DNA of 64,000 bases from a virus. Under the pieces are notes generated by a model. The model was given only the letters and a program-made list of their open reading frames with translations, was not told where the DNA came from and made no database searches. The stretch spans positions 1 to 64,000 of the IMG/VR virus record IMGVR_UViG_3300050821_001428; one strand, given 5' to 3'. Shown one piece after another: positions 21,941 to 54,285 of this stretch. The stretch's first letter is position 1, and each line of letters starts with the position of its first letter. Position numbers and translations under genes: made by a program.

Positions 21941-24805
21941 TTACATATATTGTTTTGCTAGATTCATTAAATCGTTATGGTTATTCAACGTAGGTTGTTC
22001 TATTACAAGATCAAGTAGATTGCGTAGAGTCTGGCCGATTTGAGCACCTTGTGGCATTCCCATACCGATTAAATCATTGCCATTAATAGCAAGATTATTT
22101 AAATCAGTGGGCTGTTGTCCCTTACGTACCTCATCTACGCGAGTTCTCATTTGATCTACAGGTGTCCTAGCTTCATAGTAGGCGGAATCCTGACCCTTAT
22201 CACCCATATCTGCCTGGCGTAAGTTTAGCAGATCATCTGCGTGTTCATCCCCTACTCTATTAAGGAATTTTCTAGCACCTTTTTGAGAATCGAAAGCAGG
22301 GAACATGTGATTTGATACTAGATGCTGCACCCGCTTAATACGTGCTACCGGATAGTTGAGATGGCGTAAACGATCTTCCGCCATCTTAGCACCTACATGT
22401 TCGTGGTCAGCACCGAATACCTCACCGGAAGGTAAATGCTTCTCGTAATAGTGGTTGTGATTAGTAACGGGATCTTTCCATGCAGACGCTGGCTTACCAA
22501 TGTCGTGAAGCATTGCTGCCATACGAACATCTGGGTCCGGTGTAAGCTGCGATGTATTCCCCAATACATGCATTAGGTGATCTCCTAATGGATATTTGTG
22601 ATGAGGATTAGATTGGTCAAAATCCCAATTATCATCAACCTCCGGGAAGATATGCTTAAGGATACCCGTATCATGTGCCAATCTTATAGCCGCTGCTGGA
22701 TTGTGGGAACCGATTAGTTTATCTATTTGCTTGTTAAGGGCATCGGATGACTCACCGCGTAGCAAGTGTGCGTTAGCTGCCATTTCACCGCGAGTCTGCT
22801 CGTCGGGGTGGAGGCCGAATCGTGAATGTGCTGTGAGCGCACGCACAAGCCTAGTTGGGTCTTCTCGGAATGAGTCTGGATGAGTTGTTCTAAGTAGATT
22901 CTTTTCAAGATCATTTTGTCCACCATGCGGGTCTATTATATCTCCAGTATCTAAATCTACTGCCATCGAATTTACAGTAAAATCACGACGCTCAAGATCC
23001 TTATCAATAGGTAAATTGTGATCTACAGTGATAACTCCTTCGCCTCTGCGGGACGTTTCGTATTTATCTTGTCTGGGCAGAGCAATCTCGACTTCGTGGC
23101 CATCGTGACGGTAACGATAGACACCAAAACGCTTCCCTGTTAGATCAACTCGGCCAGGTAGTTTAGAAAGAATATTATCAATCTCTTCGGTAGGAAGTCC
23201 GGCCACCATAAGATCAAGATCCTTAGGATTCTCACCACGCAAAACATCTCTTACTGCGCCGCCCACCACATATACCTTACCTCCTGAAAATCTCAATGCA
23301 TCATAAGCAAGACTAGCCGCCGGATCAGCGCTCGTAAGAACTCGTAAGAATTGTCCGGGGTCCATCTGATTTGCACTTATACCCGAAGTTGTACTCCATC
23401 GGTTGGTATAGGGATGGAGTACATTAACTAAAACAGAGGGTTCGTTCTTCATAATAGCAGCGCTAGCTCCATGATGTCCATCCTGCACAATCGTGCGATT
23501 CTTATTATCTTTTGCTCCTATAATAGGGTGAGAGTCAGGATAATTCAAAGCATGTTTCACACCATCTTGCGTTACATATTCTTGAGTAGGCACTAATTGA
23601 GAAACCGGAACCATCTCTTGATGCCATTCTGCTACATTAGGATCAGTATTACCAAGAACTGCCTCCTTGATATTAGGATCAAATGGATGGGACCATAGTT
23701 GACTAGTAGCTATCTCGTCTTGGGGATTCAAAGATACCCCGTACTGATTCTGCCACCAATTCTGCCAATTTGGGTCTAACGCCATGCTCTGTTTCGTATT
23801 GGTCAAGAAGGGTGTTAATTTCTCCTTCTGCCAATTCGGGACAATTGTGTCGGTAATAATCTTTCCATCGCTTGAGATGGTTTCCAATGTATTCGATGTA
23901 TTCTGAATGTTCCATGCGTCTATTATACTCCCAACCCGCCTTAATCTCATTGGATCTACATAGGACGTGTACCATCCTCCTGCGACCTGCTGTGATCCAG
24001 TATTATCGGGCTGTACCTGTAATCCTGCTCCATTGACCTGATAGATTACAGGTTTGTGTCCCATCTCTTGGATCTCCTGAGCATATTGCTGGGCCTTAGC
24101 TAGATTATCCCACAGATATACTCCGTCATCCCAATCGTCCACATTATCCCAGGGAGCGCTCTTAGCGCGAGTATTATCTAACCCATGCTGCTGAATTGAT
24201 TCAATTGCTGGTTCGGTAGTTACGTGATAATAAACTGGTCCTGCTGTTCCAACCTTGTGGGTTTTTCCTTCATGTTCTATTTCTAAGCTTGTAATCTCCA
24301 TTTGGGGAAACTGGGAAATCCAACAATTTTGTATGCTACGCGTGGTATAGAGAGCAGTATTAGACGGATAGATAATCATCTTACCGCCAGGTTGATACTC
24401 ACCCTCTACGATTGCAGCTTTAGAAAATTCGCCCCTATAAGGTTTGATGTCTCTAGTCTTTTCTCCCTCAAATCCTATCTGAATGTGGTTCTTATGCACA
24501 TCATAAATAAAAGGAATGGGAGCATTAATCAGATCTTTAGGATCTTTCCCTTTGCTCTTGGCTAGTATAGCAGCATTCCCATACTGTTGGAGGAATACAT
24601 TGAGGCCGTGATCAACTTCTGAATCGACCGCAGAGATATGTACTATCTCGCCATCTTTTGTTGCACCATATCCCACCTGCTGGCCTCTATAGAAAGCTCC
24701 GTAGAATTGATATGAATCATCATAACCAAAAAGTTCCTTATATATGGAATAATCTACGAATCTCTCTGGTGGTGTGGTTAATGGAATATATGCTATTTTA
24801 CGCAT
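21941..24805 (-). CDS. cca: multidomain CCA-adding tRNA nucleotidyltransferase with HD domain and N-terminal ART-like and ParB-like domains
   Basis: VVGGAVRD...KDLD, DLERRDFTVN and FREDPTRLVRA; LHDIGKP (HD); YYHVT...IQQHGL...GVYL (ART-like); LVPTQ...QDGHH (ParB/Srx-like). Confidence 0.85.
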   Translation of the reverse strand: MRKIAYIPLTTPPERFVDYSIYKELFGYDDSYQFYGAFYRGQQVGYGATKDGEIVHISAVDSEVDHGLNVFLQQYGNAAILAKSKGKDPKDLINAPIPFIYDVHKNHIQIGFEGEKTRDIKPYRGEFSKAAIVEGEYQPGGKMIIYPSNTALYTTRSIQNCWISQFPQMEITSLEIEHEGKTHKVGTAGPVYYHVTTEPAIESIQQHGLDNTRAKSAPWDNVDDWDDGVYLWDNLAKAQQYAQEIQEMGHKPVIYQVNGAGLQVQPDNTGSQQVAGGWYTSYVDPMRLRRVGSIIDAWNIQNTSNTLETISSDGKIITDTIVPNWQKEKLTPFLTNTKQSMALDPNWQNWWQNQYGVSLNPQDEIATSQLWSHPFDPNIKEAVLGNTDPNVAEWHQEMVPVSQLVPTQEYVTQDGVKHALNYPDSHPIIGAKDNKNRTIVQDGHHGASAAIMKNEPSVLVNVLHPYTNRWSTTSGISANQMDPGQFLRVLTSADPAASLAYDALRFSGGKVYVVGGAVRDVLRGENPKDLDLMVAGLPTEEIDNILSKLPGRVDLTGKRFGVYRYRHDGHEVEIALPRQDKYETSRRGEGVITVDHNLPIDKDLERRDFTVNSMAVDLDTGDIIDPHGGQNDLEKNLLRTTHPDSFREDPTRLVRALTAHSRFGLHPDEQTRGEMAANAHLLRGESSDALNKQIDKLIGSHNPAAAIRLAHDTGILKHIFPEVDDNWDFDQSNPHHKYPLGDHLMHVLGNTSQLTPDPDVRMAAMLHDIGKPASAWKDPVTNHNHYYEKHLPSGEVFGADHEHVGAKMAEDRLRHLNYPVARIKRVQHLVSNHMFPAFDSQKGARKFLNRVGDEHADDLLNLRQADMGDKGQDSAYYEARTPVDQMRTRVDEVRKGQQPTDLNNLAINGNDLIGMGMPQGAQIGQTLRNLLDLVIEQPTLNNHNDLMNLAKQYM

Positions 24806-26196
24806 TATGCACCTTCAAGTCCATTCCATGCACTCTCACCAATAGGTTGTGTACCGAAATCTACTTGTTGATTTCTTTCAAACGGTGTTTTAGGAAATGG
24901 ATCTTGAGGTACTTGGCTCATATCGGGATGATGAACGTCCTTATCATGAAGAATAAGCTCGTTGATCTTATCGAACTTGGCTCCACAACTCTCACACTCT
25001 AGATTATTAGCTTGGGATATATCCCCTAATTCACTCTCAGGTTCAGCGTCTTGATCGCCCAGATTATGTTGGTCTAAATGTGGCATATTCTTCATCTTAT
25101 CGAGCATATTACCACCACCTGGGTAGGTAGCCTGTGGCCTCCATGTTAATTTATATCCAAAATCTTCTGCCCATTCTTGTATAGCGGCTCTAGCCGAGCC
25201 TACTTCTTCAAGACAGTTTGCCATGTTAGCTATTATATCAATCTTTCTGCCATGAGGTAATGGAGTTTTAGCAATCACTAGATGGCCATCTGGACGAGTC
25301 TTATACCACATCGATTTCTTAGCACCAAAACTATCATCAATCGGCTCACCATGTGAATCTAGCATACCTTCGAAATTCCATCCGATGGAATCTGAAAACT
25401 CTTCCAGTTGTTGGTGAACGTTGTTAAGCGCCATATTAGAGGTTACGAACCACGTCACGCTACCATCGATCACTTTACCATATCCAACGGTAATAGGACC
25501 GTTGCTCTGATCCGAGGTACCAGCAAAATTTAATAATTCATTATGATCGTGAACCGGAGATACATGAAGCTGGCCATTAGCAAATACAAAACGATATTCT
25601 TCGGCAGGATCGGACATAGACGTAGGTTCATCGTGTATCATCGGTCCATTATTCTGCCAATCCTCCTGCTTCTGTGGTGTCTCTCCGGGATGCGCCGTTG
25701 GACCCATTAAATCCGCCTGCTTAAGCACACCGCCGCGCATATAAGCATCGGCGCGCTTAGCAAATACCTCGCTACGATCATGTTTGGTATTAGGAACAAT
25801 ACGGAAATCTCTATATAACGGATGAGTAGAACGAACGTATACCGATGGGCCTAGCATCCAACGTTTATGATGAGGTTCCAAACGGATAAGATCGCCGCTT
25901 TCATCTGTCTGTCCATCAACACTGGGATCGATCGGAGGCTTACTAAACAGGTCGCCTGTTAGATCAATAATATATTCCTTATCAGGGCTGACCCAAAAGT
26001 AGTGCCCCCTTTTTATACCTACGAATCCACCAAGCCGCTTTTGTAACCATCTAGACGTTACGTAACAACATCCCTGGGAAGGGTCAGGATGACCTTGATA
26101 AGCCGGATGGCGTGTATCTTCACCCCATGCTAATTCAGCGGCACGCTGAAGCTCGCTAAGGCGTTCTTGTGATATACTGTCGGGATTAAATGACAT
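24805..26196 (-). CDS. multidomain protein with a YunG-like papain-fold N-terminus and a C2H2 finger
   Basis: W..DT...P..GCCYVTS, HYFW and IDLTGD; CESC...H...H. Confidence 0.55.
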   Translation of the reverse strand: MSFNPDSISQERLSELQRAAELAWGEDTRHPAYQGHPDPSQGCCYVTSRWLQKRLGGFVGIKRGHYFWVSPDKEYIIDLTGDLFSKPPIDPSVDGQTDESGDLIRLEPHHKRWMLGPSVYVRSTHPLYRDFRIVPNTKHDRSEVFAKRADAYMRGGVLKQADLMGPTAHPGETPQKQEDWQNNGPMIHDEPTSMSDPAEEYRFVFANGQLHVSPVHDHNELLNFAGTSDQSNGPITVGYGKVIDGSVTWFVTSNMALNNVHQQLEEFSDSIGWNFEGMLDSHGEPIDDSFGAKKSMWYKTRPDGHLVIAKTPLPHGRKIDIIANMANCLEEVGSARAAIQEWAEDFGYKLTWRPQATYPGGGNMLDKMKNMPHLDQHNLGDQDAEPESELGDISQANNLECESCGAKFDKINELILHDKDVHHPDMSQVPQDPFPKTPFERNQQVDFGTQPIGESAWNGLEGA

Positions 26197-26226
26197 AGAT
26201 AATCACATATTATGTGCTGCTTATGC

Positions 26227-43014: not shown

Positions 43015-43042
43015 TATACTCCTTTTATTTTATTTTACACCA

Positions 43043-43116: not shown

Positions 43117-43143
43117 GAGAAACTGGGAGACTGAAATTGTAAG

Positions 43144-43218
43144 AGGGTAGTGTCGGATTCGAACCGACATAGGCTAGGATCACAACCTAGAACATTAGTC
43201 CAATTATGCTAACTACCC
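43144..43218 (-). tRNA. tRNA-His(GTG)
   Basis: CTAGG-TTGTGAT-CCTAG. Confidence 0.85.
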
Positions 43219-43229
43219 ACAAGCTACTA

Positions 43230-43300
43230 AGCACCTAGCCGGAATCGAACCGGCGTCTACTGCCTGGCAAGCAGTTATAATACCATTATACCATAGATGC
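43230..43300 (-). tRNA. tRNA-Gly(GCC)
   Basis: ACTGC-TTGCCAG-GCAGT. Confidence 0.9.
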
Positions 43301-43304
43301 GACA

Positions 43305-43376
43305 CGCCCTCGGAGAGAATCGAACTCTCGCCCCCGCCATCGGAAAGCGGTGCTCTGGCCGCTGAGCTACAAGGGC
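43305..43376 (-). tRNA. tRNA-Arg(CCG)
   Basis: CCGCT-TTCCGAT-GGCGG. Confidence 0.9.
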
Positions 43377-43431
43377 ATACTCGGCGTTTTTATCTATTAT
43401 GAGAACGCCCAAACTCACAGACTATATTTAC

Positions 43432-44028: not shown

Positions 44029-44030
44029 TA

Positions 44031-44444
44031 TTATTTGGCTCCGGAATAACTTGATGATGGACTCACCGCACCATCAATACAGTTGATATAAATAAATTCA
44101 CTTTGTTGGGCGTTCAACGTTCCGCCATGTGCTTGCTGCGCCAACTCGCACAGTTGGCTCAAATCCGCATATTGTTCCGCCTTTAGAGCAATTACTTCAT
44201 TACCTTGTACGTCTGGGGACTGAATTTGTGCTGTAATGGTTTCAATGTTCTGAAACTGACCATCAATCTCTGATGCGAGATTGGACTGATATCCAATGGA
44301 ATTTCGGATCATCAGAGTTGTACGATTCTCGTTTTGATTGTTAAACCACCAACCAAGTTGCCAACCACCAAATACAATTACAGCAATTATTAGGATTGCT
44401 GTAAACGATCCACCGACAATCACCATCTTTTTAATCTTCTTCAC
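44031..44444 (-). CDS. membrane-anchored protein
   Basis: N-terminal TM helix, GGWQLGWW; paired with the lipoprotein gene. Confidence 0.75.
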   Translation of the reverse strand: MKKIKKMVIVGGSFTAILIIAVIVFGGWQLGWWFNNQNENRTTLMIRNSIGYQSNLASEIDGQFQNIETITAQIQSPDVQGNEVIALKAEQYADLSQLCELAQQAHGGTLNAQQSEFIYINCIDGAVSPSSSYSGAK

Positions 44445-44529
44445 TAATCGTTTACCTTTATTTTAGTTGACCTACACTTCTACAGTGTAGCAGACAAATG
44501 TGATGGCTGAAATGACTGAAAAGTCAAAG

Positions 44530-44602
44530 TACCGGGAGCGAGAGTCGAACTCGCGCACATTAGATTAAAAGTCTACTGCTCTGGCCACTGAGCTACCCCG
44601 GC
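44530..44602 (-). tRNA. tRNA-Lys(TTT)
   Basis: TAGA-CTTTTAA-TCTA. Confidence 0.9.
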
Positions 44603-44605
44603 TTA

Positions 44606-44678
44606 AGCCCTTGACAGGAATTGCACCTGCGACACACGGTTTCGTAGACCGACGCTCTCTCTACTGAGCTACAAGGGC
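44606..44678 (-). tRNA. tRNA-Arg(ACG)
   Basis: CGGT-CTACGAA-ACCG. Confidence 0.85.
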
Positions 44679-44731
44679 TGGTTGGAGAGATTAATAGCTC
44701 TCTCCGGGCTATGATTCTTATTCTATCACGG

Positions 44732-45403
44732 TTAGGCTAGAGTTTCAACCCGATCGTAATCGTACTCCGATAGAGAGTATGCACCCTTGGTAGAAAGGAA
44801 CCCTCCTTTTACATGGTCGTGCATAATCTGTGCTTCGTATACCTGTCCTTCTTCTCCCGAAAGGGCTAATTCGTAAATCTTAGGATGCTCTTCCTTTAGT
44901 TCATCTAGCAACTTCTGGGCAAATATACGTTCATGATCCCTTAGATAAGGAACAATGCTCTTCCCGGTACCATCTCCACGGTAATGAAGGTCACGGTGCC
45001 GTCCGACGCACAGAGGAATCGTACAAACAGATCTAGCAGCATAGCTAACGTAGTTATCAAGCTCCTTCATAAGCCATCTAGGGATGAAGTGATGCCTAGT
45101 AATCCGACCTTCACATTCCCATCCATGTATAGCACAGATGCGGCAGGTTGGCTGGATTTGGGACTCGATCTTACGTAATCGGCGGCGTTCAAGAATCTCA
45201 GGAGGAACTACAATAGTATTAGAAGCTAACCTTAGACGAAATAAGACCTGCTTTTGTGTAAGCCCTTCATCCAATAGATCATCTAATTCTGCATCCTCAT
45301 AGTCGGCAAGAAGTTCCAATTGCTCTACTGTAGCCCGACTTTTTTGATCAAACCAAAAGACTTGGTTAGAACGCGGATCATCAAACCAACGAGCGCGAGA
45401 CAT
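44732..45403 (-). CDS. HNH-family endonuclease-like protein
   Basis: CRIC...TRHHFIPR...PLCVGRH..LH; RBS AAGGAG. Confidence 0.7.
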   Translation of the reverse strand: MSRARWFDDPRSNQVFWFDQKSRATVEQLELLADYEDAELDDLLDEGLTQKQVLFRLRLASNTIVVPPEILERRRLRKIESQIQPTCRICAIHGWECEGRITRHHFIPRWLMKELDNYVSYAARSVCTIPLCVGRHRDLHYRGDGTGKSIVPYLRDHERIFAQKLLDELKEEHPKIYELALSGEEGQVYEAQIMHDHVKGGFLSTKGAYSLSEYDYDRVETLA

Positions 45404-45435
45404 GAACTCTCCTTTCCTAAATTCGGGTTGCAAAG

Positions 45436-45508
45436 TACCGATACGGAGAATTGAACTCCGATTTACGCGCTGAGAACGCGCTGTCCTACACCATTAGACG
45501 ATACCGGC
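45436..45508 (-). tRNA. tRNA-Glu(CTC)
   Basis: GCGCG-TTCTCAG-CGCGT. Confidence 0.9.
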
Positions 45509-45856
45509 TTAGGTTGAATTTTTACTACTTTAGGTTCTTCATTAGCTTTCTTAATTTTTACAATCATCATCTACAATTCTATCCAGGGTAGATATATGTA
45601 TCTATAGCCAGATGTACAAGATTACGCCCCTGTTTAGCGCCGAGGGGCAAGGCGGAAGGACATGGCGGTAGCACCCAGCATACACTTATCCTCAGATTAT
45701 CCCCGCCTTTTCCGCACGGCATTAGGGACCATGAATTTCGTTACAGTTACAAGTACTCCCACGGCATACTGCCAGCCGCTCGTCGGATTAAGTTGTAATC
45801 CAATGACCTCTAGGTGGGGTTTCTACATTAATGATTCAATTAACACAAAAAGTTAA

Positions 45857-45930
45857 TACGTTGCCTCGGAGTCGAACCGAGATTTGCCGAATTAAGAGTT
45901 CGGAACTTTATCCATTTAAGTTAGCAACGC
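45857..45930 (-). tRNA. tRNA-Lys(CTT)
   Basis: CCGAA-CTCTTAA-TTCGG. Confidence 0.9.
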
Positions 45931-45994
45931 TTATTCCTAGCTACTAGGGGTTGAAGGCTTATTTTATTACTTCGTTAATAAGTACTTTTAAAAG

Positions 45995-46077
45995 TACCCC
46001 AGGTGGGACTTGAACCCACAATCTCTTACGAGCAACCGATTTTAAGTCGGTTTGTTATACCAATTCACAACTGGGGC
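45995..46077 (-). tRNA. tRNA-Leu(TAA)
   Basis: ACCGA-CTTAAAA-TCGGT; long variable arm. Confidence 0.9.
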
Positions 46078-46083
46078 GAGAAG

Positions 46084-46154
46084 CTGGAGAATAGGGATTC
46101 GAACCCCAATAGACGGTGCCAAAAACCGTCGTCTTGCCTTTAGACGATTCTCCA
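46084..46154 (-). tRNA. tRNA-Gln(TTG)
   Basis: ACGGT-TTTTGGC-ACCGT; U1-A72. Confidence 0.9.
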
Positions 46155-46170
46155 GTGATTTGTAAAATAC

Positions 46171-46461
46171 TTAATTGTTTAGTTTTCCAGGTTCAACGTT
46201 TGTCGTTGTCGCTGAATCTAGTATAGCAACTTCCTGATCAGAGTCAAGCTTTTTTGCGGGTTTGGGGGTTTTGGTTTTTAGCAACAACTCTTCAAGGATA
46301 TCTCGCTGACGCTGATTATACGGTTGGTTCTTAGTATTGAGAACTATAACACGATAATCGGCAGGGACATCTTGTGATTGACTCCATTTAGTCGCCTTTG
46401 CCGGGTCATGAGTTGTGTAACATGACACGCCACTCTTATAAAATACGCTGTAAATCTTCAT
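46171..46461 (-). CDS. hypothetical protein
   Basis: 96 aa; TAATATATGA motif 2 nt upstream. Confidence 0.6.
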   Translation of the reverse strand: MKIYSVFYKSGVSCYTTHDPAKATKWSQSQDVPADYRVIVLNTKNQPYNQRQRDILEELLLKTKTPKPAKKLDSDQEVAILDSATTTNVEPGKLNN

Positions 46462-46502
46462 ATCATATATTATGTACCGAACTTAGGGTTCGCCATATTT
46501 GA

Positions 46503-46577
46503 TTGCCCCTCTAGGGGTCGAACCTAGATAACTCCTGGTTCAGAGCCAGGCGAGTCTGCCAATTCCTCCAAGGGGCA
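46503..46577 (-). tRNA. tRNA-Gln(CTG)
   Basis: CCTGG-CTCTGAA-CCAGG. Confidence 0.9.
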
Positions 46578-46583
46578 TTAGTA

Positions 46584-46659
46584 TGGCAGAGACAGGATTC
46601 GAACCTGTGATCTCCTGCGTATGAGACAGGCGGGGACGGCCTTACTCCCCTACTCCGCG
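46584..46659 (-). tRNA. tRNA-Met(CAT), initiator-like (C1:C72 mismatch)
   Basis: CCTGT-CTCATAC-GCAGG; 5' CGCGG. Confidence 0.8.
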
Positions 46660-46717
46660 TCGAGCCAAGTTGATATCGCTCAACTTGGAAAGCGCAAGTC
46701 TGTTGCTAGATTATAGC

Positions 46718-47053
46718 TCAGACCGCATGGGTGCCTTCGACACCACGGGCTTCACGCGCGGTGGTGCGCTCTTGTAACTTATCAAGAGCCTCCCCAAGCA
46801 GTACGAGTGCCTGCGCGTTGTAATCGCAGGCGAACTTGGTTGATTGGTAGAACTCAATCCGGTCGACAGCGGCGGCGATCACGCCCTCTACAAACGCACC
46901 GTTCGGCTCTAGGCGGACCCCGCCGCGCGTGAGCATGTGTTCGGCAAGCGGCCCGTTCTGCCATCCGATCGTAAAGCCGACGCCGTAGGTCGTGCCACCG
47001 GCTGGATTTCCGTCGTCGTCAGTGAAGTGATGGCTCTCGATTGTCTGCAACAT
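46718..47053 (-). CDS. Tad1-family cyclic-nucleotide sponge-like anti-defence protein
   Basis: WQNGP...NG...E.VI....DRIEFYQ..KFAC..N..AL..L.EAL..L..RT..R..RGVEGT; RBS AAGGAG; start ATG 47053. Confidence 0.7.
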   Translation of the reverse strand: MLQTIESHHFTDDDGNPAGGTTYGVGFTIGWQNGPLAEHMLTRGGVRLEPNGAFVEGVIAAAVDRIEFYQSTKFACDYNAQALVLLGEALDKLQERTTAREARGVEGTHAV

Positions 47054-47124
47054 CACAGTAACTCCTTTTCTCTCGATTAACGAAATATTGTCAGTATATC
47101 TTTCATCTTGATTGAATTGTACAG

Positions 47125-47208
47125 TGCCGATGGAGGGAGTCGAACCCTCACGTCTGTCAAGACACTGGGATTTGAAGCCAGCATGTATACCAATTTCATC
47201 ACATCGGC
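47125..47208 (-). tRNA. tRNA-Leu(CAA)
   Basis: loop TTCAAAT; long variable arm. Confidence 0.85.
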
Positions 47209-47277
47209 TTGTCTGGTTGCGTGATTTTATCAAGCTAGCATCATATTATTACACGCCATTACCTGCTGCCACGACCA

Positions 47278-47316
47278 TAGCACCACGGAGAATCGAACTC
47301 CGATTACAAGATTGAA
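47278..47316 (-). pseudogene. 3' half of a tRNA (TTC anticodon remnant)
   Basis: TTCAATCTTG...CGGAGTTCGATTCTCCG-TGGTGCTA; 5' half missing. Confidence 0.6.
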
Positions 47317-47323
47317 CTATTTA

Positions 47324-47397
47324 TAGCTCCAGCGGGGTTCGAACCCGCAATCTTTTCCTTGAAAGGGAAACGAGATAAACCATTACTCTATGGAGCC
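47324..47397 (-). tRNA. tRNA-Glu(TTC)
   Basis: TTTCC-CTTTCAA-GGAAA. Confidence 0.85.
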
Positions 47398-47420
47398 AAG
47401 ATTTTCTAGTACGACCTACA

Positions 47421-47451
47421 AGTATAGCAGAGGGCGCTCATACAGTGTCAA
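47421..47451 (-). promoter_or_regulatory. internal promoter of the tRNA array
   Basis: TTGACA-N19 with extended -10 TGcTATACT. Confidence 0.55.
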
Positions 47452-47541
47452 TTTCCGCATCGCTTGTATCTAGGTGCCATATTTTCATCCACAAAGAAAT
47501 ACCACCGACTCTTTTGATGAATTTATCAGGCCGGATTACGA

Positions 47542-47762
47542 CCCTACAACGCTCCAAGGTTTGAGGTTATCGCACGATCCGCCCGGTTCCTGCGCTCCCT
47601 CTTAGTAGGCCCAGATACCCTGGGTTCGGTGCGAGAATTTTGGCCCGGCGTGTTCCGGATCAAGTCTCGCCCGACAGCACTGTGCCGGTTCGTCATGAAA
47701 ATCATGTAGCACATGTGTTGGGCGGCAAGTTCGATAACTTCAAACCTTGGAGCGTTGTAGGG
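47542..47762. mobile_element. 221-bp element bounded by 31-bp inverted repeats (MITE/invertible-like)
   Basis: CCCTACAACGCTCCAAGGTTTGA(G/A)GTTATCG at 47542-47572 and inverted at 47732-47762 (30/31). Confidence 0.6.
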
Positions 47763-47841
47763 GAAGCTTTTCAAGGCTCGCATTTTCCTGACAACAGTCC
47801 AGATGAGAGGAATCGAACCTCCACCGGGGGTTAGCCCGTAA

Positions 47842-47931
47842 CGGAAGGTACGGGGATCGAACCCGTAAGGCACTTTCGTGCTCGTCACTTTTCGAGAGTG
47901 GTCCCATCGCCAACCATTGGGTTGCCCTTCC
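47842..47931 (-). tRNA. tRNA-Ser(CGA)
   Basis: CACT-CTCGAAA-AGTG; long variable arm; G73. Confidence 0.9.
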
Positions 47932-48120
47932 AAGAATTCATCATTCATTGCATGTTCATATGTGCAATTTATAGTTGATCTACCGTCAAGTTCGCATGGC
48001 ATAACGGTTTAGTAAACCGCTCCAATACCGTTATGGTTATATTTCCTTGGCACCAGTGAGGGGACTTTCACCGCCTATCTGCCCGTGGGCTATTCTAATA
48101 ATTAAACTACACTGATGTAG

Positions 48121-48206
48121 CGGAGGGACAGGGAATCGAACCCTGTGGACGCTCATCACGTTTTATACCGTTTCCAGCGATATTCCTAGCCATTTGGGTT
48201 CCCTCC
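48121..48206 (-). tRNA. tRNA-Ser(GGA)
   Basis: TATCG-CTGGAAA-CGGTA; long variable arm. Confidence 0.8.
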
Positions 48207-48252
48207 AAGTGTACGTTCCCGATGACAATTTAACACACTACTTCGCACTTGG

Positions 48253-48459
48253 CTATTTCTTCAAACAGCATAACTTCAGAGCGTCGAGTCGGGGAGCAGC
48301 ACTGCGTGACGCGCGCGTCCCACCTGCTGCTCGCGGATCATCATCGCGGACGGCATCTCGACGCACGGCAACCGACGACAACGGCTCCTGGGAGCCGTAC
48401 TGATCGAAGAAGCCGATCCGAATGCGCTTCTGGAGCGCACGATCACCGTAGTCAGTCAT
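48253..48459 (-). CDS. GC-rich hypothetical ORF or gene remnant
   Basis: GC-rich insert inside the tRNA array. Confidence 0.35.
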   Translation of the reverse strand: MTDYGDRALQKRIRIGFFDQYGSQEPLSSVAVRRDAVRDDDPRAAGGTRASRSAAPRLDALKLCCLKK

Positions 48460-48649
48460 CAGAACGTGAAGTGTATGCCGTTGTCGGAATCCCGCCAGCC
48501 ACAGCTAGTTTACCAGAACTCATACGCGTAAGCCCTGGTCGAGAATAATATACATCACCGGATTCATATCTACAGTATAGCATATCAGACTAGAGTCGCC
48601 AACTTATGGTGACTCCTCATGCTCCTTCCGCCACAAGGTGGATGAGTCA

Positions 48650-48741
48650 CGGATAGAGTGGGGGTCGAACCCACAAGGGCTTATTCATCCTCGTCGCTTT
48701 TCAAGAGCGATGCCGTCGGCCAACTATCGGCTTGCCTATCC
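48650..48741 (-). tRNA. tRNA-Ser(TGA)
   Basis: TCGCT-CTTGAAA-AGCGA. Confidence 0.9.
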
Positions 48742-48746
48742 ATAAA

Positions 48747-48829
48747 AAGCCAGTGTGAGAATCGAACTCACTCCCCGTTATGGGCGATACGTGTTGCAGA
48801 CGCCGGTGTTACCATTCCACCAACTGGCC
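48747..48829 (-). tRNA. tRNA-Cys(GCA) with a long variable arm
   Basis: GCGT-CTGCAAC-ACGT; U73; extra CCC-ATAAC-GGG arm. Confidence 0.8.
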
Positions 48830-48913
48830 GTTATACCCCAATTCCCCAAAAGGGCTGCTGCCGGTCGAGCTAATATTAGCCTTTACCTACTCGGGGTTTG
48901 ATAGGTAGCAAAG

Positions 48914-48986
48914 CTGCTCAGATAGGACTTGAACCTATAACCATCGCCTTAACAGGGCGTTGCACCGCCAATTGTGCTACTGAGCA
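48914..48986 (-). tRNA. tRNA-Asn(GTT)
   Basis: CGCC-CTGTTAA-GGCG. Confidence 0.9.
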
Positions 48987-49170
48987 TTGTTATTCCATCT
49001 TCAACTTCCATGTGACAATTTGAACATAATAAAATACATTTACTAGCTTCTGCTCTCATTTTAGCTAATCCAGGGATTTTACCCTTCCATGCTAAATGGA
49101 ACAACTTCGTAGTGGGATCTATATGGTGAAAATGTAAGGCTCTCATACATTTATCATATCCGCAAATCAC
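48949..49170 (-). pseudogene. HNH endonuclease, probably 5'-truncated
   Basis: CGY.KC..ALHFHH.DP..K...KCILLCSNCH; in-frame TAG upstream; 3' end runs into tRNA-Asn. Confidence 0.65.
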
Positions 49171-49203
49171 ACAGATTGTCCATAAAACCTATGATCCGTT
49201 AAG

Positions 49204-49293
49204 CAGAGGGTAGGGGATTCGAACCCCTGATACACGTCTAAGGTGTATGACGGTTTAGCAAACCGTTCTCGTCAGCCACTTGAGTAACCCTCT
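49204..49293 (-). tRNA. tRNA-Ser(GCT)
   Basis: ACGGT-TTGCTAA-ACCGT. Confidence 0.9.
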
Positions 49294-49383
49294 GAGACTA
49301 CAGTTCGATGACCACTGGTACACAATTAAGGTACGTCAATTTAGCAAACTGATGCAATCGGCCTCTCTGCCAACCTTCCAATA

Positions 49384-50046
49384 CTATACTTCAATCATTA
49401 CCGGTGAATTAAGCGGTTGGTAACGTGCATCCATTATAGCAACATTCCAAACTTCGGTTTCGCCTAATTCGTAATGGCCGAATCCTTCATGAATATGCCC
49501 ACAAATGACATGCTTAGGTTTAATATCCCTAATCATCATGTCACACTGTGCCGATCCCACATGAGGATGTAGTGCGCTGATAACCTTGTCCGCTACTCCA
49601 TAAGGAGGTCCGTGGGTTATAACTACATCCGTATCGGTATCTACGGCCTTATACTTCTCGCTTAGAGTAGCATTATCTCCGTAAAACGCCCAACCCTTTA
49701 GATTGGGAACCCATGGAATACCATAGAATCGAATATCATCTACAATGATAGCCTCATCCTCAAGATAAGTCCATCCTACATCGTAGGTAGTGTCCTTTGC
49801 ATCACCAAATACTGCGTATCTATTCTCCAGAGCGAAATCATGGTTACCAGCGATTACCAATCGGTGTTTTGCTGGCATTTTCATGGTCCAGTCTGAAAAT
49901 TCATTTCTAATCCAACTAGTACAACGATCGGTATCACGATCGTACCGAATCGGACTAATATCCCCCGCTACCACCAGAATATCGGATTCTGGAACCGCTA
50001 CAGGCAAATAGCCATGTAGATCCGAAAGAGCACAAATTGTTGTCAT
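49384..50046 (-). CDS. metallophosphoesterase
   Basis: SDLHG, AGDI, AGNHD, THGPP and CGHIHE. Confidence 0.9.
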   Translation of the reverse strand: MTTICALSDLHGYLPVAVPESDILVVAGDISPIRYDRDTDRCTSWIRNEFSDWTMKMPAKHRLVIAGNHDFALENRYAVFGDAKDTTYDVGWTYLEDEAIIVDDIRFYGIPWVPNLKGWAFYGDNATLSEKYKAVDTDTDVVITHGPPYGVADKVISALHPHVGSAQCDMMIRDIKPKHVICGHIHEGFGHYELGETEVWNVAIMDARYQPLNSPVMIEV

Positions 50047-50057
50047 TTTTCCTTAAG

Positions 50058-50427
50058 TGGACCTGCTCGCATCGAAGCGAGGTGGCCCGTAATCGTCATC
50101 AGAGATTTAGTATAGCATCTTTCTAGGACAAGAGTTACTTCAAGGACAAGCAGAGCTTGTCTCCACCAACTTAGTCTACATCTTAGGGGCGACTAGTAAC
50201 CCCGATTCCTATGCTTCTGTTGACAGGTGCATAGACCCCGTTCTGGCTATTTAAGCAAGAACAGAAAGAACTTCACTTGCACGGATCTCGCTCTTTGCAG
50301 AGAAAGCGCCAGCAGGGATGTTCATAGGACGATATGATTCGCCAGTTAATTGTTTTGCGAGATTTAGGTGTCTCAAAACCGATGCAATTCTTAATTCGTT
50401 TTTACGAGATCGAAACCTTTCAGGCCC
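50058..50427 (-). ncRNA. ssrA: tmRNA
   Basis: 5' GGGCCTGAAAGGTTTCGA pairs with 3' CAGGTCC-A giving G3:U70; T-arm CTCGC-TTCGAT-GCGAG; internal tag ORF ending VLA-stop at 50251. Confidence 0.85.
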
Positions 50428-50462
50428 GTTGAAGAGAGGCAGCTTGTAATTGTAATTTGCTA

Positions 50463-50882
50463 TCATTTTTTACGTTGGTCGATACGTCTACACTCTTTGC
50501 ATTTATGTCTAGGTCTAAATGACCCATCTTTATTTGGCTCAGTATGTAAACTAAAATTATCCACAGGCAAAAATTGCTGATGCCCATGACACCACCACAT
50601 CCCTTCGGGATAATTGTTTTTATGTGGTGCTTGATTTCTTTTAATATTACAATTAAGATGTGAAAATGCAATGTTATCTAAATCCCAAAATAGATCATCA
50701 GGATTTTGAAGCCAAGGGATTTTGTGTTCAACAGATAATTCCTGAGCACACTCAATCGGTTTTTCACATACAAAACAAATATCTCTTCCGCTCTGTTGTA
50801 CAAGTTGGAAAAATATTTGTTTTCTGAGTCGAGCATAGGCAGTTGTAGTATACATACCTAACATGCTACGATAGCGTTCCAA
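50463..50882 (-). CDS. HNH endonuclease-like protein
   Basis: CFVC...SVEHKIPW...NIAFSH..CN plus a C-terminal zinc finger; start uncertain. Confidence 0.7.
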   Translation of the reverse strand: MERYRSMLGMYTTTAYARLRKQIFFQLVQQSGRDICFVCEKPIECAQELSVEHKIPWLQNPDDLFWDLDNIAFSHLNCNIKRNQAPHKNNYPEGMWWCHGHQQFLPVDNFSLHTEPNKDGSFRPRHKCKECRRIDQRKK

Positions 50883-50935
50883 AGATTTAGATTCTTATTT
50901 CATCATCTATTATATCTATGGACTATTACATTTCT

Positions 50936-51006
50936 GTAACTATAACGGTCCTAAGTAGAAATCCTACCTACACGGTAATAGCGTAACATAACTTCGAACG
51001 CTGCCC
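50936..51006 (+). other. 23S rRNA helix 69-70-like sequence fragment
   Basis: exact GTAACTATAACGGTCCTAAG, then colinear CCTACCTACACG and AATAGCGTAAC (compare CCGACCTGCACG and AATGGCGTAAC). Confidence 0.75.
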
Positions 51007-51024
51007 ATTTTTGCTACCTCTCAG

Positions 51025-51096
51025 TAGACAGAGAGGGATTCGAACCCTCAACCTCCCGCATGTCAAGCGGGTGCGCTACCATTGCGCTATCCGTCT
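51025..51096 (-). tRNA. tRNA-Val(GAC)
   Basis: CCCGC-TTGACAT-GCGGG. Confidence 0.9.
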
Positions 51097-51112
51097 GATT
51101 ACTACTTGTAAG

Positions 51113-51185
51113 TACCCAATCTGTGAATCGAACACAGTCAATAGGGGCATGTAAAGCCCTTGCCGTCCCATCTGGCTCATCGGGT
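51113..51185 (-). tRNA. tRNA-Val(TAC)
   Basis: AGGGC-TTTACAT-GCCCC. Confidence 0.8.
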
Positions 51186-51222
51186 ATGGTGGGCAAGCAA
51201 GCTTTTGAACTACACTTGCCCT

Positions 51223-51273
51223 TGGCCGCATCCGGGAGGATTTCAACCTCGCCTACAGAACTAAATCGGATGC
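51223..51273 (-). ncRNA. anticodon-less tRNA-like minihelix
   Basis: GCATCCG/CGGATGC acceptor-like stem, GAGG-TTGAAAT-CCTC T-arm, 3' GGCCA. Confidence 0.45.
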
Positions 51274-51305
51274 TTTATTGAGGGTGGGTGGTCCCCCATC
51301 CTCAG

Positions 51306-51377
51306 CGGTTCTAGAGAGAATTGAACTCTCGTATGAGGCTTGACAAGCCCCCGTAATATCCACTATACGATAGAACC
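51306..51377 (-). tRNA. tRNA-Asp(GTC)
   Basis: GGGGC-TTGTCAA-GCCTC; G73. Confidence 0.9.
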
Positions 51378-51386
51378 TAATTGTAA

Positions 51387-51457
51387 CACCCCATCAAGGT
51401 AACGCTCCCTGGTCTTCGGGTTTGGAAGCCGACGTTTTGCTATTAAACTAATGAGGT
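51387..51457 (-). tRNA. tRNA-Trp(CCA), atypical T-loop
   Basis: loop TTCCAAA; T-loop AGCGTTA; acceptor ACCTCAT/ATGGGGT. Confidence 0.7.
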
Positions 51458-51663
51458 TTTAAGAGGCCAAGACCATAGGTAATCTACCTTCCAAGCACTA
51501 CCTGGGTCTTAATGACCTACAGTAATAATAAACACTGATCGCACCCCTGAGTAGCAGTCAATAAGGAATTGTCCACATAGTGCCAGCTATATAGGTTTCA
51601 GAGAATACAGCCCTGGCAGGCTAATCTCTTGCGATGGCGAGTTATGTACTGGTCGCCACAGTA

Positions 51664-51715
51664 AGACTGCATTCGGATTTGAGCCGAAATGCGCTACCCA
51701 TCGTAGCATGCAGCC
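51664..51715 (-). ncRNA. tRNA-like element lacking the anticodon arm
   Basis: GGCTGCA/TGCAGTC acceptor; GCTAC-GATGG-GTAGC arm; TTCGG-CTCAAAT-CCGAA T-arm. Confidence 0.5.
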
Positions 51716-51839
51716 GAAAAATAAGTAGGCATCCTCTGTTCTAGACCAGAGCCTTTTGGTTATTCTTGAGCGCCTATGTCAAGGTTTTCCATATCTAGGA
51801 CTTTAAACCGACAGAGCTTTTCCCTTGAACCTACTTATA

Positions 51840-51911
51840 AGCCAACTATGAGAGTCGAACTCATTCTTTCTACTTACGGGGTAGACGTGCTTCCGTTGGC
51901 ACTCAGTTGGC
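51840..51911 (-). tRNA. tRNA-Thr(CGT)
   Basis: TCTAC-CCCGTAA-GTAGA. Confidence 0.8.
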
Positions 51912-51920
51912 GGCGGGCTA

Positions 51921-51993
51921 TCAGAGATGAGAGATTTGAACTCCCGATAAATGCTCCCAAAGCACTTGTGTTACCAGACTACACTAATCTCTG
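51921..51993 (-). tRNA. tRNA-Pro(TGG)
   Basis: AGTGC-TTTGGGA-GCATT; C1-G72. Confidence 0.85.
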
Positions 51994-52226
51994 TTTTGGT
52001 CCCAATGTATCGCCCTATTGGCTTGACGACTCCTAGAACATTGGGACCATAGACCCATACCGAAAGGTATAAAATAGGGCCTATTTCGTTATATAGGTGC
52101 TATATAAGGTTGGGTGGAGAATTACCTCACTCGCTTACTCGCTACTTGTTCGCGACAGGCAAAACCCCAACTTTATACGTGAATTTCGTTGGCAACCTGT
52201 TACTTTCACTTTCTTCTAATGACCCA

Positions 52227-52279
52227 TGGAAGATAAGGGAGTCGAACCCCTTCGCACACTAATTAATATCTTAGTCCCC
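52227..52279 (-). pseudogene. Ala-like tRNA remnant/minihelix without an anticodon arm
   Basis: 5' GGGG...AAGGGGTTCGACTCCCTT-ATCTTCCA. Confidence 0.45.
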
Positions 52280-52294
52280 ATCATAAATAGATAG

Positions 52295-52371
52295 TGGAGG
52301 ATATCGGATTCGAACCGATGCAAAAACCCACGGTGCAAACGTAGTGCTCTCCCAAACTGAGCTAATCCCCC
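52295..52371 (-). tRNA. tRNA-Ala(TGC)
   Basis: CTACG-TTTGCAC-CGTGG; G3:U70. Confidence 0.9.
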
Positions 52372-52388
52372 AAGAAGGATAATAAAAA

Positions 52389-53120
52389 ATGAAAATTAAA
52401 ACTGTTGAAGTTGTTTGTGATGGTTGTGGTCAACTTTTTGACCGATATATAGGCGAAGTAAAACGTTCTCAACGCAAACATATGAAAATGTATTGCGCGC
52501 AATCTTGCACAGCAAGATATCGTGTCCGACCCATTACTATACACGAACCTAATGTAATCTGCGCCCATTGTAATAAAGCATTTTACAAAAACCCCTCATC
52601 TTTGAGTAATTCAAAATCTGGCTTATTCTTCTGTTGTCGGGAGCACAAAGATATATCGCAACGTATAGGTAATTTACACGCGATACGGGAGATAATGCCC
52701 AATCATTATGGAACAGATCCCAATAAAAATATTAATTATAGAAAACTTGCTTTCGATCATTTACCTAATGAATGTGAAATTTGTCAATGGAAGGAATATC
52801 CCAATGTTTTAATTGTTCATCACAAAGATCGAAACAGGAATAATAATGTCCTCGAAAATTTACAAATTATTTGTCCAACACATCATGATGTAGACCATTA
52901 TTTACAAAAGGATGGACGCTTTACAACAGGACGCCGTCATACCGGAATCAATCGCTCTCAAATCAAATGGCCACCCATTCCTTGGCTTTTAGAACGTTCT
53001 AATCAAATTGGAGTCCGTCAGACCGCGCTTGAGATTAATGTATCAGATACTGGTTTACGTCACTATTTACGTAGAAATGGTATTGACCCACCAGATTTTC
53101 GAGGTAGAAAACATACATAA
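52389..53120 (+). CDS. HNH homing endonuclease with zinc ribbons and a C-terminal HTH
   Basis: CEIC...VHHKDRNRNNN.LENLQIICPTHH; the only plus-strand gene in the array; RBS AAGGA. Confidence 0.85.
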   Translation: MKIKTVEVVCDGCGQLFDRYIGEVKRSQRKHMKMYCAQSCTARYRVRPITIHEPNVICAHCNKAFYKNPSSLSNSKSGLFFCCREHKDISQRIGNLHAIREIMPNHYGTDPNKNINYRKLAFDHLPNECEICQWKEYPNVLIVHHKDRNRNNNVLENLQIICPTHHDVDHYLQKDGRFTTGRRHTGINRSQIKWPPIPWLLERSNQIGVRQTALEINVSDTGLRHYLRRNGIDPPDFRGRKHT

Positions 53121-53164
53121 TCCTGCGTGCAAAGCAGGTGTGTTCCCATTAGCACTAATCCCCC
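53121..53164 (-). pseudogene. 5' two-thirds of a tRNA-Ala(TGC) interrupted by the HNH gene
   Basis: GGGGGAT...CCTGC-TTTGCAC-GCAGG ends at the HNH stop codon. Confidence 0.75.
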
Positions 53165-53168
53165 TAAG

Positions 53169-53241
53169 TACCACCTCTGGGATTCGAACCCAGACTTGTA
53201 CGCTCCTAAGGCGTATGCCTCTGCCGTTGGGCTAAGGTGGC
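53169..53241 (-). tRNA. tRNA-Leu(TAG), short variable arm
   Basis: TACGC-CTTAGGA-GCGTA. Confidence 0.85.
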
Positions 53242-53247
53242 TAATAT

Positions 53248-53913
53248 TCAATTTTCAATCTTCGTTACTTTAATACCAAGTTGACCCGCTTGATATCGCA
53301 TTTTAACATAAGTATGAGCGTTTGTCAAGCTTACTCCAGATTTTATCGCACCATGGAGACTTTTATGGTGCTGACGACAAATCGGTACAACATCTTCAAA
53401 TTTTTCATGCCCTAATCTTACATATGTATGGTGATGTAAATCATATGATTCATCCCCACATACGAAACAAAACTTTAATGTTCCACTATTAGCAACATAG
53501 GCTGTTTTAAATTCTTTCCAATGATCCGAATCGAGATATTCTTTATATTCCTCTCTAGTCATTGAGGGTGGACACACAGCTACTTGTGCTGCTGCGGCAC
53601 GCCTGCGCTTTAAGCTTTTTTCATGTACTACAGGAAAAAATGCTAATTTTTTAGCACGGGTAGTGTGTCTACGCCTGCTGCGATTCTTCATTTTACTTAC
53701 TTGTAAAGGGCTTTTATATGGATGTTTGGAGATTTCCTCCAAAACTAACATACGTAGTTCTTTAGGCACATCCATAATATCTACATGAATCATACATGTA
53801 GATTCACGATACAGCGAATCTACATGCTTTGGAGCAAAAATCACCAAGGGACGCTCGCGCCCGCATGTTTTGCAATATTTGCTTTTCTTAGTAGGGATAA
53901 ATGATTTACTCAT
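53248..53913 (-). CDS. HNH-family nuclease
   Basis: YKEYL.S.HW...CFVCG...LHHHTY.RLGHE...DVVPIC..HH. Confidence 0.75.
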   Translation of the reverse strand: MSKSFIPTKKSKYCKTCGRERPLVIFAPKHVDSLYRESTCMIHVDIMDVPKELRMLVLEEISKHPYKSPLQVSKMKNRSRRRHTTRAKKLAFFPVVHEKSLKRRRAAAAQVAVCPPSMTREEYKEYLDSDHWKEFKTAYVANSGTLKFCFVCGDESYDLHHHTYVRLGHEKFEDVVPICRQHHKSLHGAIKSGVSLTNAHTYVKMRYQAGQLGIKVTKIEN

Positions 53914-53927
53914 AATCAAAATTCCTA

Positions 53928-54009
53928 TGCTCATTTAAGGAATCGAACCTTACTGTCATAAAGATACGGATTTACAGTCCGCTACCAACACCAGTTGGAC
54001 ATAATGAGC
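53928..54009 (-). tRNA. tRNA-Tyr(GTA)
   Basis: GCGGA-CTGTAAA-TCCGT; long variable arm. Confidence 0.85.
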
Positions 54010-54161
54010 TAATTTGAATTGAGAATCTGTGCTCGGCGCGACCATAGTAATTTGTGGAATACACCCACCCAGAGGGGAATTGACCACTATCACAGACCAT
54101 AACCTCAATCCTATGTTTTCTTTCTGACTCTAGTTTAGCACATCGCTTCACCTTTATCAAA

Positions 54162-54234
54162 CACCCACTGAGGGATTCGAACCCCCAATCTAGACCTTAG
54201 AACGATCTTGCCTTATCCATTGGGCTAAGTGGGC
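54162..54234 (-). tRNA. tRNA-Arg(TCT)
   Basis: AGATC-GTTCTAA-GGTCT. Confidence 0.85.
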
Positions 54235-54256
54235 TTATGTCTTCCAACGTTCAACA

Positions 54257-54285
54257 AGTATAACACACTGCTCTACAAATAACAA
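54257..54285 (-). promoter_or_regulatory. promoter heading the tRNA array
   Basis: TTGTTA-N17-TATACT, 23 nt upstream of the first tRNA. Confidence 0.65.

Follow-up and report, generated by a model that had tools for sequence, protein, structure and literature searches.

An RNase P-like RNA, a tmRNA and a putative CCA-adding enzyme accompany a CCA-less tRNA array in a phage genome

The transfer RNA (tRNA) cluster of phage T4 includes genes that lack the terminal CCA; T4 depends on the RNase P of its host to cut the precursors and on the host CCA-adding enzyme to complete them. RNase P RNA has so far been regarded as a ribozyme of cells and organelles. CCA-adding enzymes, transfer-messenger RNA (tmRNA) and SmpB have been reported in huge phages (Al-Shayeb et al., 2020, PMC7162821), in jumbo phages the CCA enzyme has been counted among the genes for tRNA repair (Iyer et al., 2021, PMC7824862), and the evasion of tRNA-targeting defences by phage tRNAs is documented (PMC10264068, PMC11555353). 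RNase P is mentioned in neither of the two phage surveys (PMC7162821, PMC7824862), and we found no paper on a phage RNase P RNA in the searchable literature. Here we describe bases 1-64000 (hereafter the window) of the IMG/VR record IMGVR_UViG_3300050821_001428, a phage genome of 144,267 bp that is ~90% complete according to CheckV, has a G+C content of ~44-45% and whose window sequence is present in a soil metagenome. The region is probably a translation-support set built around a single minus-strand tRNA array, in which an RNase P-like RNA takes part in the pathway set out below. Its combination of tRNAs, CCA enzyme and tmRNA is already published; the new elements are the RNase P-like RNA and an extended, split CCA protein.

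Of special interest is the RNA of about 300 nucleotides (nt) that lies inside the array (Table 1). It contains, in the same order as bacterial RNase P RNA, P1, P2, a GAGGAA junction, P4, a P18-like hairpin with a GNRA loop, AGAUG, the 3' strand of P2, CAGAAC and the 3' strand of P4. We fetched the E. coli rnpB sequence (L258) for direct comparison, and its CR-I, J5/15, J18/2 and J2/4-P4 all have clear counterparts in the phage RNA, while a stem enclosing three helices occupies the position of the S-domain. Comparisons were made among three phages: the window phage (W), its closest relative R (L009/L012/L016, of which L012/L016 is a Logan contig) and phage T (L011/L249). Homologues were detected at the syntenic place in both of the other phages, which also carry the CCA-enzyme fusion described below (L016, E = 2.6e-20, and L249). 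In the alignment of the three sequences the junctions are invariant, as is P4 with its seven base pairs and bulged U, and compensatory changes occur in P1, P2, a GAAA hairpin, a second hairpin, the enclosing stem, a P15-like stem and the P18-like hairpin. Across the three sequences 96% of cells are paired, and the pairs in which both sides have changed number 23, compared with 8.9 +/- 2.3 in shuffled alignments (0/500) and 0-5 in slid registers.

Several points weigh against reading this element as a working RNase P. The window copy has no Rfam RNase P match at E <= 10 with the laxest filters, even when a 322-nt stretch is searched; the S-domain elements (CR-II/III) have no confident assignment; the CR-I-like motif is one A shorter than in E. 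coli; the covariation comes from three sequences only, from which the structure itself was derived; and the phage genome has neither RnpA nor SmpB. Over the whole genome RF00010 returned only tRNA-derived noise, scans with the RNase P motifs GGAAAGTCC and ACAGAANNCGGCTTA did no better than chance, and a protein search with the open reading frame (ORF) 42465-42911 returned the query alone. A soil metatranscriptome contig of 151 nt is 100% identical to positions 42170-42320, inside the RNA, and we take this and the other such contigs mentioned below as a hint only because contigs from RNA libraries show neither strand nor freedom from DNA carry-over; parts of the array that lack such contigs are uninformative.

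These observations could also be explained by an RNase P-derived or RNase P-like structured RNA that is no working ribozyme and serves instead as a decoy for host RnpA or another tRNA-binding factor, or as an element for processing or stability of the array. The missing covariance-model match of the window copy, the lack of a phage RnpA, the reduced and unassigned S-domain and the missing L15 GG would all suit such a role, but the parts that are invariant in the three phages are those of the E. coli catalytic core (CR-I/P4 with its bulged U, J2/4 ACAGAA and J18/2) and the RNA is located where its substrates are made; we therefore consider a role of this kind unlikely. The L15-like loop deserves a comment of its own. 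In E. coli the GG of L15 pairs with the CCA of the substrate, and its absence from the phage RNA fits precursors that have no CCA. We conclude that the element is almost certainly a conserved RNase P-like structured RNA, and we favor, with much less confidence, a functional RNase P ribozyme. The preliminary description, made from the letters of the window, had called it an RNase P RNA: the conserved structure with a P1-P2-P3-P4 core bears this out, whereas no Rfam model matches it.

To place this RNA in a wider family we scanned large collections for loci containing both core motifs. The scan gave seven loci, six of which are mutually related RNAs; the seventh (L253) was rejected because it is GC-rich, unrelated to the others and matches by chance. 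Of the six, four are located within tRNA arrays, one on an activated-sludge contig (L254) and three on viral contigs of a single phage group (L255-257), and the remaining two (L251, L252) are on short contigs, one with a single tRNA nearby. The archaeal RNase P model RF00373 matches two of the six, L254 and L257, over its length (29 bits, E = 2e-5, and 22 bits, E = 0.004, respectively; cut-off 84). However, the motif-sharing RNAs do not match those of W, R and T by nhmmer, and the link to RF00373 runs through RNAs that were selected by motif, which adds to the points raised against the ribozyme above. Viral-contig loci from scans with single 14- or 15-mers were rejected as chance matches, having no homologue by single-sequence nhmmer.

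The array that surrounds the RNA contains 30 tRNA genes called by ARAGORN at default settings, all on the minus strand, and ARAGORN found none elsewhere in the 144-kb genome. Three lower-scoring calls also stand: tRNA-Trp(cca) at 51387-51457 (Rfam, 43 bits), tRNA-Ser(tga) at ~48649-48740 (Rfam, 29.9 bits, just over the threshold) and tRNA-Ser(cga) at 47841-47932, called by ARAGORN at a relaxed threshold, which has a homologue at the syntenic place in L012. A further relaxed ARAGORN call, Leu(aag) at 49602-49699, was rejected because it falls within a real metallophosphoesterase gene. The preliminary count thus holds: the 33 tRNAs serve 19 amino acids, and neither ARAGORN nor Rfam finds a tRNA-Phe in the window array. 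The preliminary statement that no gene encodes a full 3' CCA holds as well: when the 3' ends were extracted, CCA followed the discriminator in 0 of the 33 tRNA genes and did not follow it in the tmRNA. Many of the tRNA ends read N73-C-U-U, and C74 is encoded by approximately one third of the genes. Since all of these genes end without CCA, their transcripts need CCA addition after 3' trimming. Neighboring genes are closely packed, with a spacing of only 0-15 nt at ten junctions of the array.

The array contains a number of other elements. A tRNA-like element at ~48038-48110 on the minus strand encodes GCCA at its 3' end, unlike all 33 tRNAs, and has a variant T-loop (UGAAAGU/UGAAAAU); its counterpart in the relative, L012:12896-12966, folds as a cloverleaf in which the loop of the "anticodon" arm has only 3 nt. 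A near-match to an RNase P motif (TGAAAGTCC, 48062-48070) was rejected since it is the T-loop of this element. The halves of an ancestral tRNA-Ser-like gene lie at 48046-48002 and 47844-47805 (minus strand), ~160 nt apart and with the intact tRNA-Ser(cga) between them, an arrangement that resembles the scar of a rearrangement; the overlapping ORF 47544-48002 is probably spurious. The array is interrupted by two genes for HNH-type endonucleases (52389-53120, plus; 53248-53934, minus), the first of which runs against the direction of the array. Between tRNA-Lys(ctt) and tRNA-Glu(ctc) there is a non-coding stretch of 55 nt (45615-45668, minus) with 84% identity to L012:17335-17389.

A strongly structured element at 47520-47800 (minus; -148 kcal/mol, z = -8.6) has a perfect closing stem of 23 bp. 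It shares 44 identical nt with codons 11-25 of a gene for a PD-(D/E)xK-like protein of 120 amino acids located 22 kb away (genome positions 70080-70123), and this segment, as it lies on the strand of the array, runs antisense to the corresponding mRNA. The element has no Rfam match and is absent in the relative, whose tRNA-Phe sits nearby; it was considered as an RNase P RNA and rejected, having no RNase P features. The array of the relative (L012/L016) holds genes for PTH2, an RF-1-domain (ArfB-like) protein, NUDIX, NAMPT and Band_7 proteins in addition to tRNA-Phe, and we saw no NUDIX, NAMPT, Band_7 or tRNA-Phe gene in the array of the window. The presence of PTH2 and the RF-1-domain gene in the closest relative indicates that the accessory set varies among relatives. 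The relative also carries a GOLLD RNA at L012:7504-7941 (RF02032, 170 bits, threshold 150) around a CCA-encoding tRNA-Ile(tat); no GOLLD RNA was found in the window.

The enzyme that would complete the CCA-less transcripts is encoded by ORF 21941-24805 (954 amino acids), described beforehand as a CCA enzyme with an HD domain. The domains and motifs are indeed present, but only in the C-terminal half, being confined to residues ~503-950. Pfam detects PolyA_pol (PF01743, 90 bits) and HD (PF01966, 32 bits against a cut-off of 22, with the motif LHDIGKP), and tRNA_NucTran2_2 falls just under its threshold (24.5 bits, cut-off 27). The translation contains the catalytic motifs A (VVGGAVRD...DLDLM), B (ERRDFT) and D (REDPTRLVRA). 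Among the NCBIfam models the actinobacterial CCA equivalog TIGR02692 ranks first; it is matched over 441 of 466 positions (22-462), although the score of 195 bits is well under the equivalog cut-off of 438.8 and counts against a firm assignment.

A poly(A) polymerase, or a half-enzyme adding only A or only CC, would share the head domain found in PAP I, and the pcnB model indeed gives 114 bits; the C74 encoded by about a third of the tRNA genes (an approximate figure) could likewise suit a half-enzyme. The PAP I models, however, cover the head only, whereas the actinobacterial CCA model is matched over nearly its full length, HD is above its cut-off with tRNA_NucTran2_2 just below, and the best matches among solved structures are true CCA-adding enzymes (3h37, 1miv, 6ibp), A-adding enzymes and PAP I ranking lower. 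The HD phosphohydrolase domain occurs in the CCA enzymes of E. coli and Actinobacteria and not in PAP I. We thus regard a poly(A) polymerase, which the preliminary description had named among the findings that would undo its proposal, or a half-enzyme as very improbable; judged from its domains, the protein appears to belong to the HD-containing, bacterial kind of CCA-adding enzymes. A CCA enzyme is in itself ordinary for a phage: tblastn finds at least 500 catalogued phage records with a homologue of the CCA part. A blastn search of the ORF against catalogued phages gave no match, and a locus search of viral contigs with this ORF and with the metallophosphoesterase gave nothing useful.

The N-terminal half of the same ORF is new, and no catalogued phage record covers it by tblastn. 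It includes a module of ~100 amino acids (N-module, Table 1), conserved in alignments with metagenomic relatives, that was found in 84 representative proteins and precedes the CCA enzyme in all seven checked long proteins that keep the part following the module. A YunG-like start is present in two of these seven, as well as in an eighth protein that ends at the N-module. The structure of the module was predicted with a predicted local distance difference test (pLDDT) score of 84.5, and fold searches gave nothing convincing (Foldseek best E = 0.025, VIA-align best Z = 5.0, Atlas TM-score <= 0.5), which is not proof of a new fold. The variable insert that follows has only a sub-threshold match to a ParB-like nuclease (ParBc_2, E = 0.049, relaxed Pfam) and a partial homologue, L008.

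Immediately upstream, a second ORF of 463 amino acids (24805-26196) is colinear over its whole length with the N-terminal ~450 residues of fusions that form one chain of 1150-1250 amino acids in other phages. By BLASTP it is 43% identical to P0130 (E = 8e-117) and 37% identical to P0008 (E = 6e-93). The colinear region of the fusions has a YunG-like start and a zinc-finger-like end, and the ORF itself gives a weak YunG match. The alignments thus show that the larger multi-domain CCA protein is split into two genes in this clade, the two ORFs being a two-gene version of the fusion protein of other phages.

Such an architecture raises the question of whether the CCA fusion acts mainly in counter-defence, repairing tRNA 3' ends hit by host toxins such as acceptor-end nucleases and MenT-type nucleotidyltransferases, with the CCA-less genes being incidental. 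The HD domain is in keeping with this, as is the position of the enzyme in a large multi-domain unit (YunG-like region, N-module and, in one relative, a sub-threshold match to a LigT-like 2H phosphoesterase). Phage CCA enzymes are already viewed as repair genes in print (PMC7824862), and defences that target tRNAs, as well as toxins acting on the acceptor stem, have been described (PMC10264068, PMC11555353, PMC10435456), which lends a repair role plausibility. On the other hand, the 33 tRNA genes and the tmRNA require CCA addition in any case, and in the few lineages compared the enzyme goes together with CCA-less arrays. Repair as the principal role therefore seems to us the less likely option, though it is compatible with the maturation of the array's own transcripts, which we prefer.

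The last RNA gene of the set is the tmRNA. Neither ARAGORN nor Rfam detects it at default thresholds, and RF00023 run over the whole genome gave only tRNA-derived noise; 440 "tmRNA" calls made by ARAGORN at -ps70 were discarded as meaningless. The tmRNA of the preliminary description was nevertheless upheld, since the relaxed ARAGORN call at its position has a bona fide homologue in the relative (L012:9366-9728, nhmmer E = 3e-43), which default ARAGORN does call and which scores 59 bits in Rfam (gathering threshold 47 bits). The window copy itself has no RF00023 match and gives only 14 bits with alpha_tmRNA. Between the two copies the T-stem shows compensatory changes, and the tag frame, though it carries synonymous changes, is conserved as protein. 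The window copy combines a tRNA-Ala-like domain with an internal tag frame that ends in a stop: its acceptor stem has 7 bp (GGGCCUG/CAGGUCC) with G3:U70, followed by the discriminator A73 and a C but no CCA, the T-arm reads CUCGC-UUCGAUG-GCGAG, and the predicted tag frame (50343-50251) has 30 codons, starts with Gly and reads GESYRPMNIPAGAF...VLA before the stop. On this sequence evidence we take the tmRNA to be real.

A 100%-identical soil metatranscriptome contig at 50060-50415 covers almost exactly the tmRNA. The deepest such contig (depth 22), also 100% identical, lies in the spacer between tRNA-Val(gac) and the tmRNA (50439-51011), where a stretch of ~90 nt following tRNA-Val is conserved in the relative.

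Taken together, the CCA-enzyme fusion, a CCA-less array and the RNase P-like RNA occur together in all three phages compared, and the tmRNA in two of them, which bears on the co-occurrence check that had been proposed. The tRNA genes are CCA-less in 33 of 33 cases in W, with two exceptions in R and in 8 of 8 cases in T; W and R carry the tmRNA, which the T records do not cover. Among the carriers of motif-sharing RNAs, L254 has 11 of 12 tRNAs without CCA. In the phage group L255-257, all 16 tRNAs have CCA, a tmRNA is present (78 bits) and no CCA enzyme was found in records that are 22-34% complete. This pattern, drawn from few lineages, is what would be expected if the phage enzyme and the CCA-less genes were functionally tied.

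Table 1. Features of the tRNA array region (positions in the window).
Feature	Coordinates	Strand	Description and basis
tRNA array	41886..54234	-	33 tRNA genes, 19 amino acids, with small ORFs and HNH endonuclease genes interspersed; ARAGORN, Rfam, 3' end extraction, spacing
RNase P-like RNA	42158..42457	-	~300 nt, ends 9 nt upstream of tRNA-Thr(tgu); sequence, homologues, covariation, E. coli rnpB comparison
P1 of RNase P-like RNA	42457-42451 with 42164-42158	-	sequence
P2 of RNase P-like RNA	42448-42443 with 42193-42188	-	sequence
CR-I-like / P4 5' strand	42422-42410	-	sequence
P18-like GNRA (GUAA) hairpin	42213-42202	-	sequence
J2/4 (CAGAAC)	42181-42176	-	sequence
P4 3' strand	42175-42167	-	sequence
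Putative class II CCA-adding enzyme part of ORF 21941-24805	21956..23299	-	residues ~503-950; head, RNA-binding neck, HD, C-terminal tRNA_NucTran2_2; Pfam, NCBIfam, PHROGs, PDB matches
Variable insert of ORF 21941-24805	23366..24247	-	residues ~187-480; not in the 662-amino-acid relative P0002; alignment
N-module of ORF 21941-24805	24248..24556	-	~100 amino acids, residues ~84-186; motif PKD-L..PIPFIYD...FTPGGIVEG.YEPGGK...LWY...KLA; alignments
Partner ORF	24805..26196	-	463 amino acids; stop overlaps the start of the CCA ORF by 1 nt; BLASTP
tmRNA	50057..50427	-	relaxed ARAGORN; homology to L012:9366-9728
Calcineurin-type metallophosphoesterase	49384..50046	-	directly 3' of the tmRNA, same position in relative L012; Pfam, PHROGs, synteny

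How far does this set make the phage independent of its host? We searched the 144-kb genome (~90% complete) for RnpA, SmpB, RF-1/ArfB and PTH2 and found none, and no 3' trimming nuclease was identified in it. Both RNAs must therefore borrow host proteins as well as the host alanyl-tRNA synthetase, and the earlier view of a self-contained kit that matures tRNAs independently of host enzymes had to be given up. In the pathway that we propose, the array would be transcribed as long precursors, and the 5' side of each tRNA would be cut by the RNase P-like RNA, probably together with host RnpA. At the junctions of 0-15 nt the same cut would leave the upstream tRNA with only a short trailer, which host exonucleases or RNase Z could trim before the phage enzyme adds CCA. 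The HD domain may additionally heal damaged tRNA 3' ends, and the tmRNA, matured in the same manner, would act with host SmpB and alanyl-tRNA synthetase in freeing stalled ribosomes. The net effect would be more capacity for the rate-limiting host steps, and less dependence on them, for a near-complete set of phage tRNAs. The preliminary interpretation is thus partly supported, as that of a gene set that would boost tRNA maturation but does not free the phage from its host.

A broader proposal is tentative and, in our estimate, falls a little short of an even chance: tRNA-array phages may own a miniaturized lineage of RNase P ribozymes that is invisible to standard annotation. In one clade of soil phages this ribozyme might be tuned to CCA-less precursors, having no L15-like GG, and might work in series with a multi-domain CCA/repair protein (YunG-like region, ~100-amino-acid module, CCA/HD), so that the virus would control both ends of its tRNAs and tmRNA. 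If true, viral miniature RNase P RNAs in tRNA arrays would be natural minimal ribozymes for study, and phages would take over tRNA 5' processing, going beyond tRNA supply. A simple testable rule for why phages keep a CCA enzyme follows from its association with CCA-less arrays. The N-module and its split or fused partner form an uncharacterized protein family attached to CCA enzymes, whose members are candidate repair factors for tRNA ends where phages face defences that target tRNAs. Phage catalogues probably list too few genes of this kind, since neither the tmRNA nor the RNase P-like RNA was detected here by ARAGORN and Rfam at default settings.

The genes around the array are of the large tailed-phage type; among their products are a terminase with an intein, a ribonucleotide reductase, a tail protein and metallophosphoesterases. 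Several genes are oversized or bear intein or Hint signatures (18132-20471, 29955-32909, 34931-39547 and 55390-58404); among the large genes are those for the terminase, with 1538 amino acids and an HNH region, and the ribonucleotide reductase, with 1004 amino acids.

Set against the T4 tRNA cluster, the window phage differs in having its own CCA enzyme and RNase P-like RNA. With the gene sets of huge and jumbo phages it shares large tRNA arrays, a phage tRNA nucleotidyltransferase and a tmRNA, and it differs from them in the RNase P-like RNA, RNase P being unmentioned there, and in lacking the SmpB that some huge phages have (PMC7162821, PMC7824862). The CCA enzyme resembles the actinobacterial and E. 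coli-type enzymes (TIGR02692, PRK10885) in its catalytic motifs and in the order of head, neck, HD and tail. It differs from them in scoring under the equivalog cut-offs, in an N-terminal extension of ~500 residues made of the N-module and the insert, and in its probable functional tie to the upstream ORF of 463 amino acids, to which it is fused in other phages. The tmRNA has in common with known tmRNAs (RF00023, including those of phages) the tRNA-like domain with G3:U70 and A73, the T-arm and a tag frame with a hydrophobic end, whereas it stays below the default ARAGORN and Rfam thresholds, has a long tag of 30 residues that starts with Gly and encodes no CCA.

The RNase P-like RNA, finally, shares with the bacterial type A RNA (E. 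coli M1/rnpB, RF00010) P1, P2, P3, CR-I and the 5' strand of P4, P18, J18/2, the 3' strand of P2, J2/4 with ACAGAA and the 3' strands of P4 and P1. The 7-bp P4 with its bulged U, the GNRA-capped hairpins and the cruciform at the position of the S-domain liken it to bacterial and reduced RNase P RNAs alike. Compared with E. coli rnpB it is shorter (~300 nt against 377 nt), has GAGGAAGU in place of GAGGAAAGU, differs in P4 by compensatory changes (UCGCC/GGCGG), lacks an L15-like GG and has a weak P3 in the window copy. No covariance model matches it, and what sets it apart from the bacterial RNA and from reduced forms, namely the archaeal RNAs of RF00373 and the T-type of Thermoproteaceae (PMC7191817), is that it is encoded by a virus and lies inside a tRNA array.

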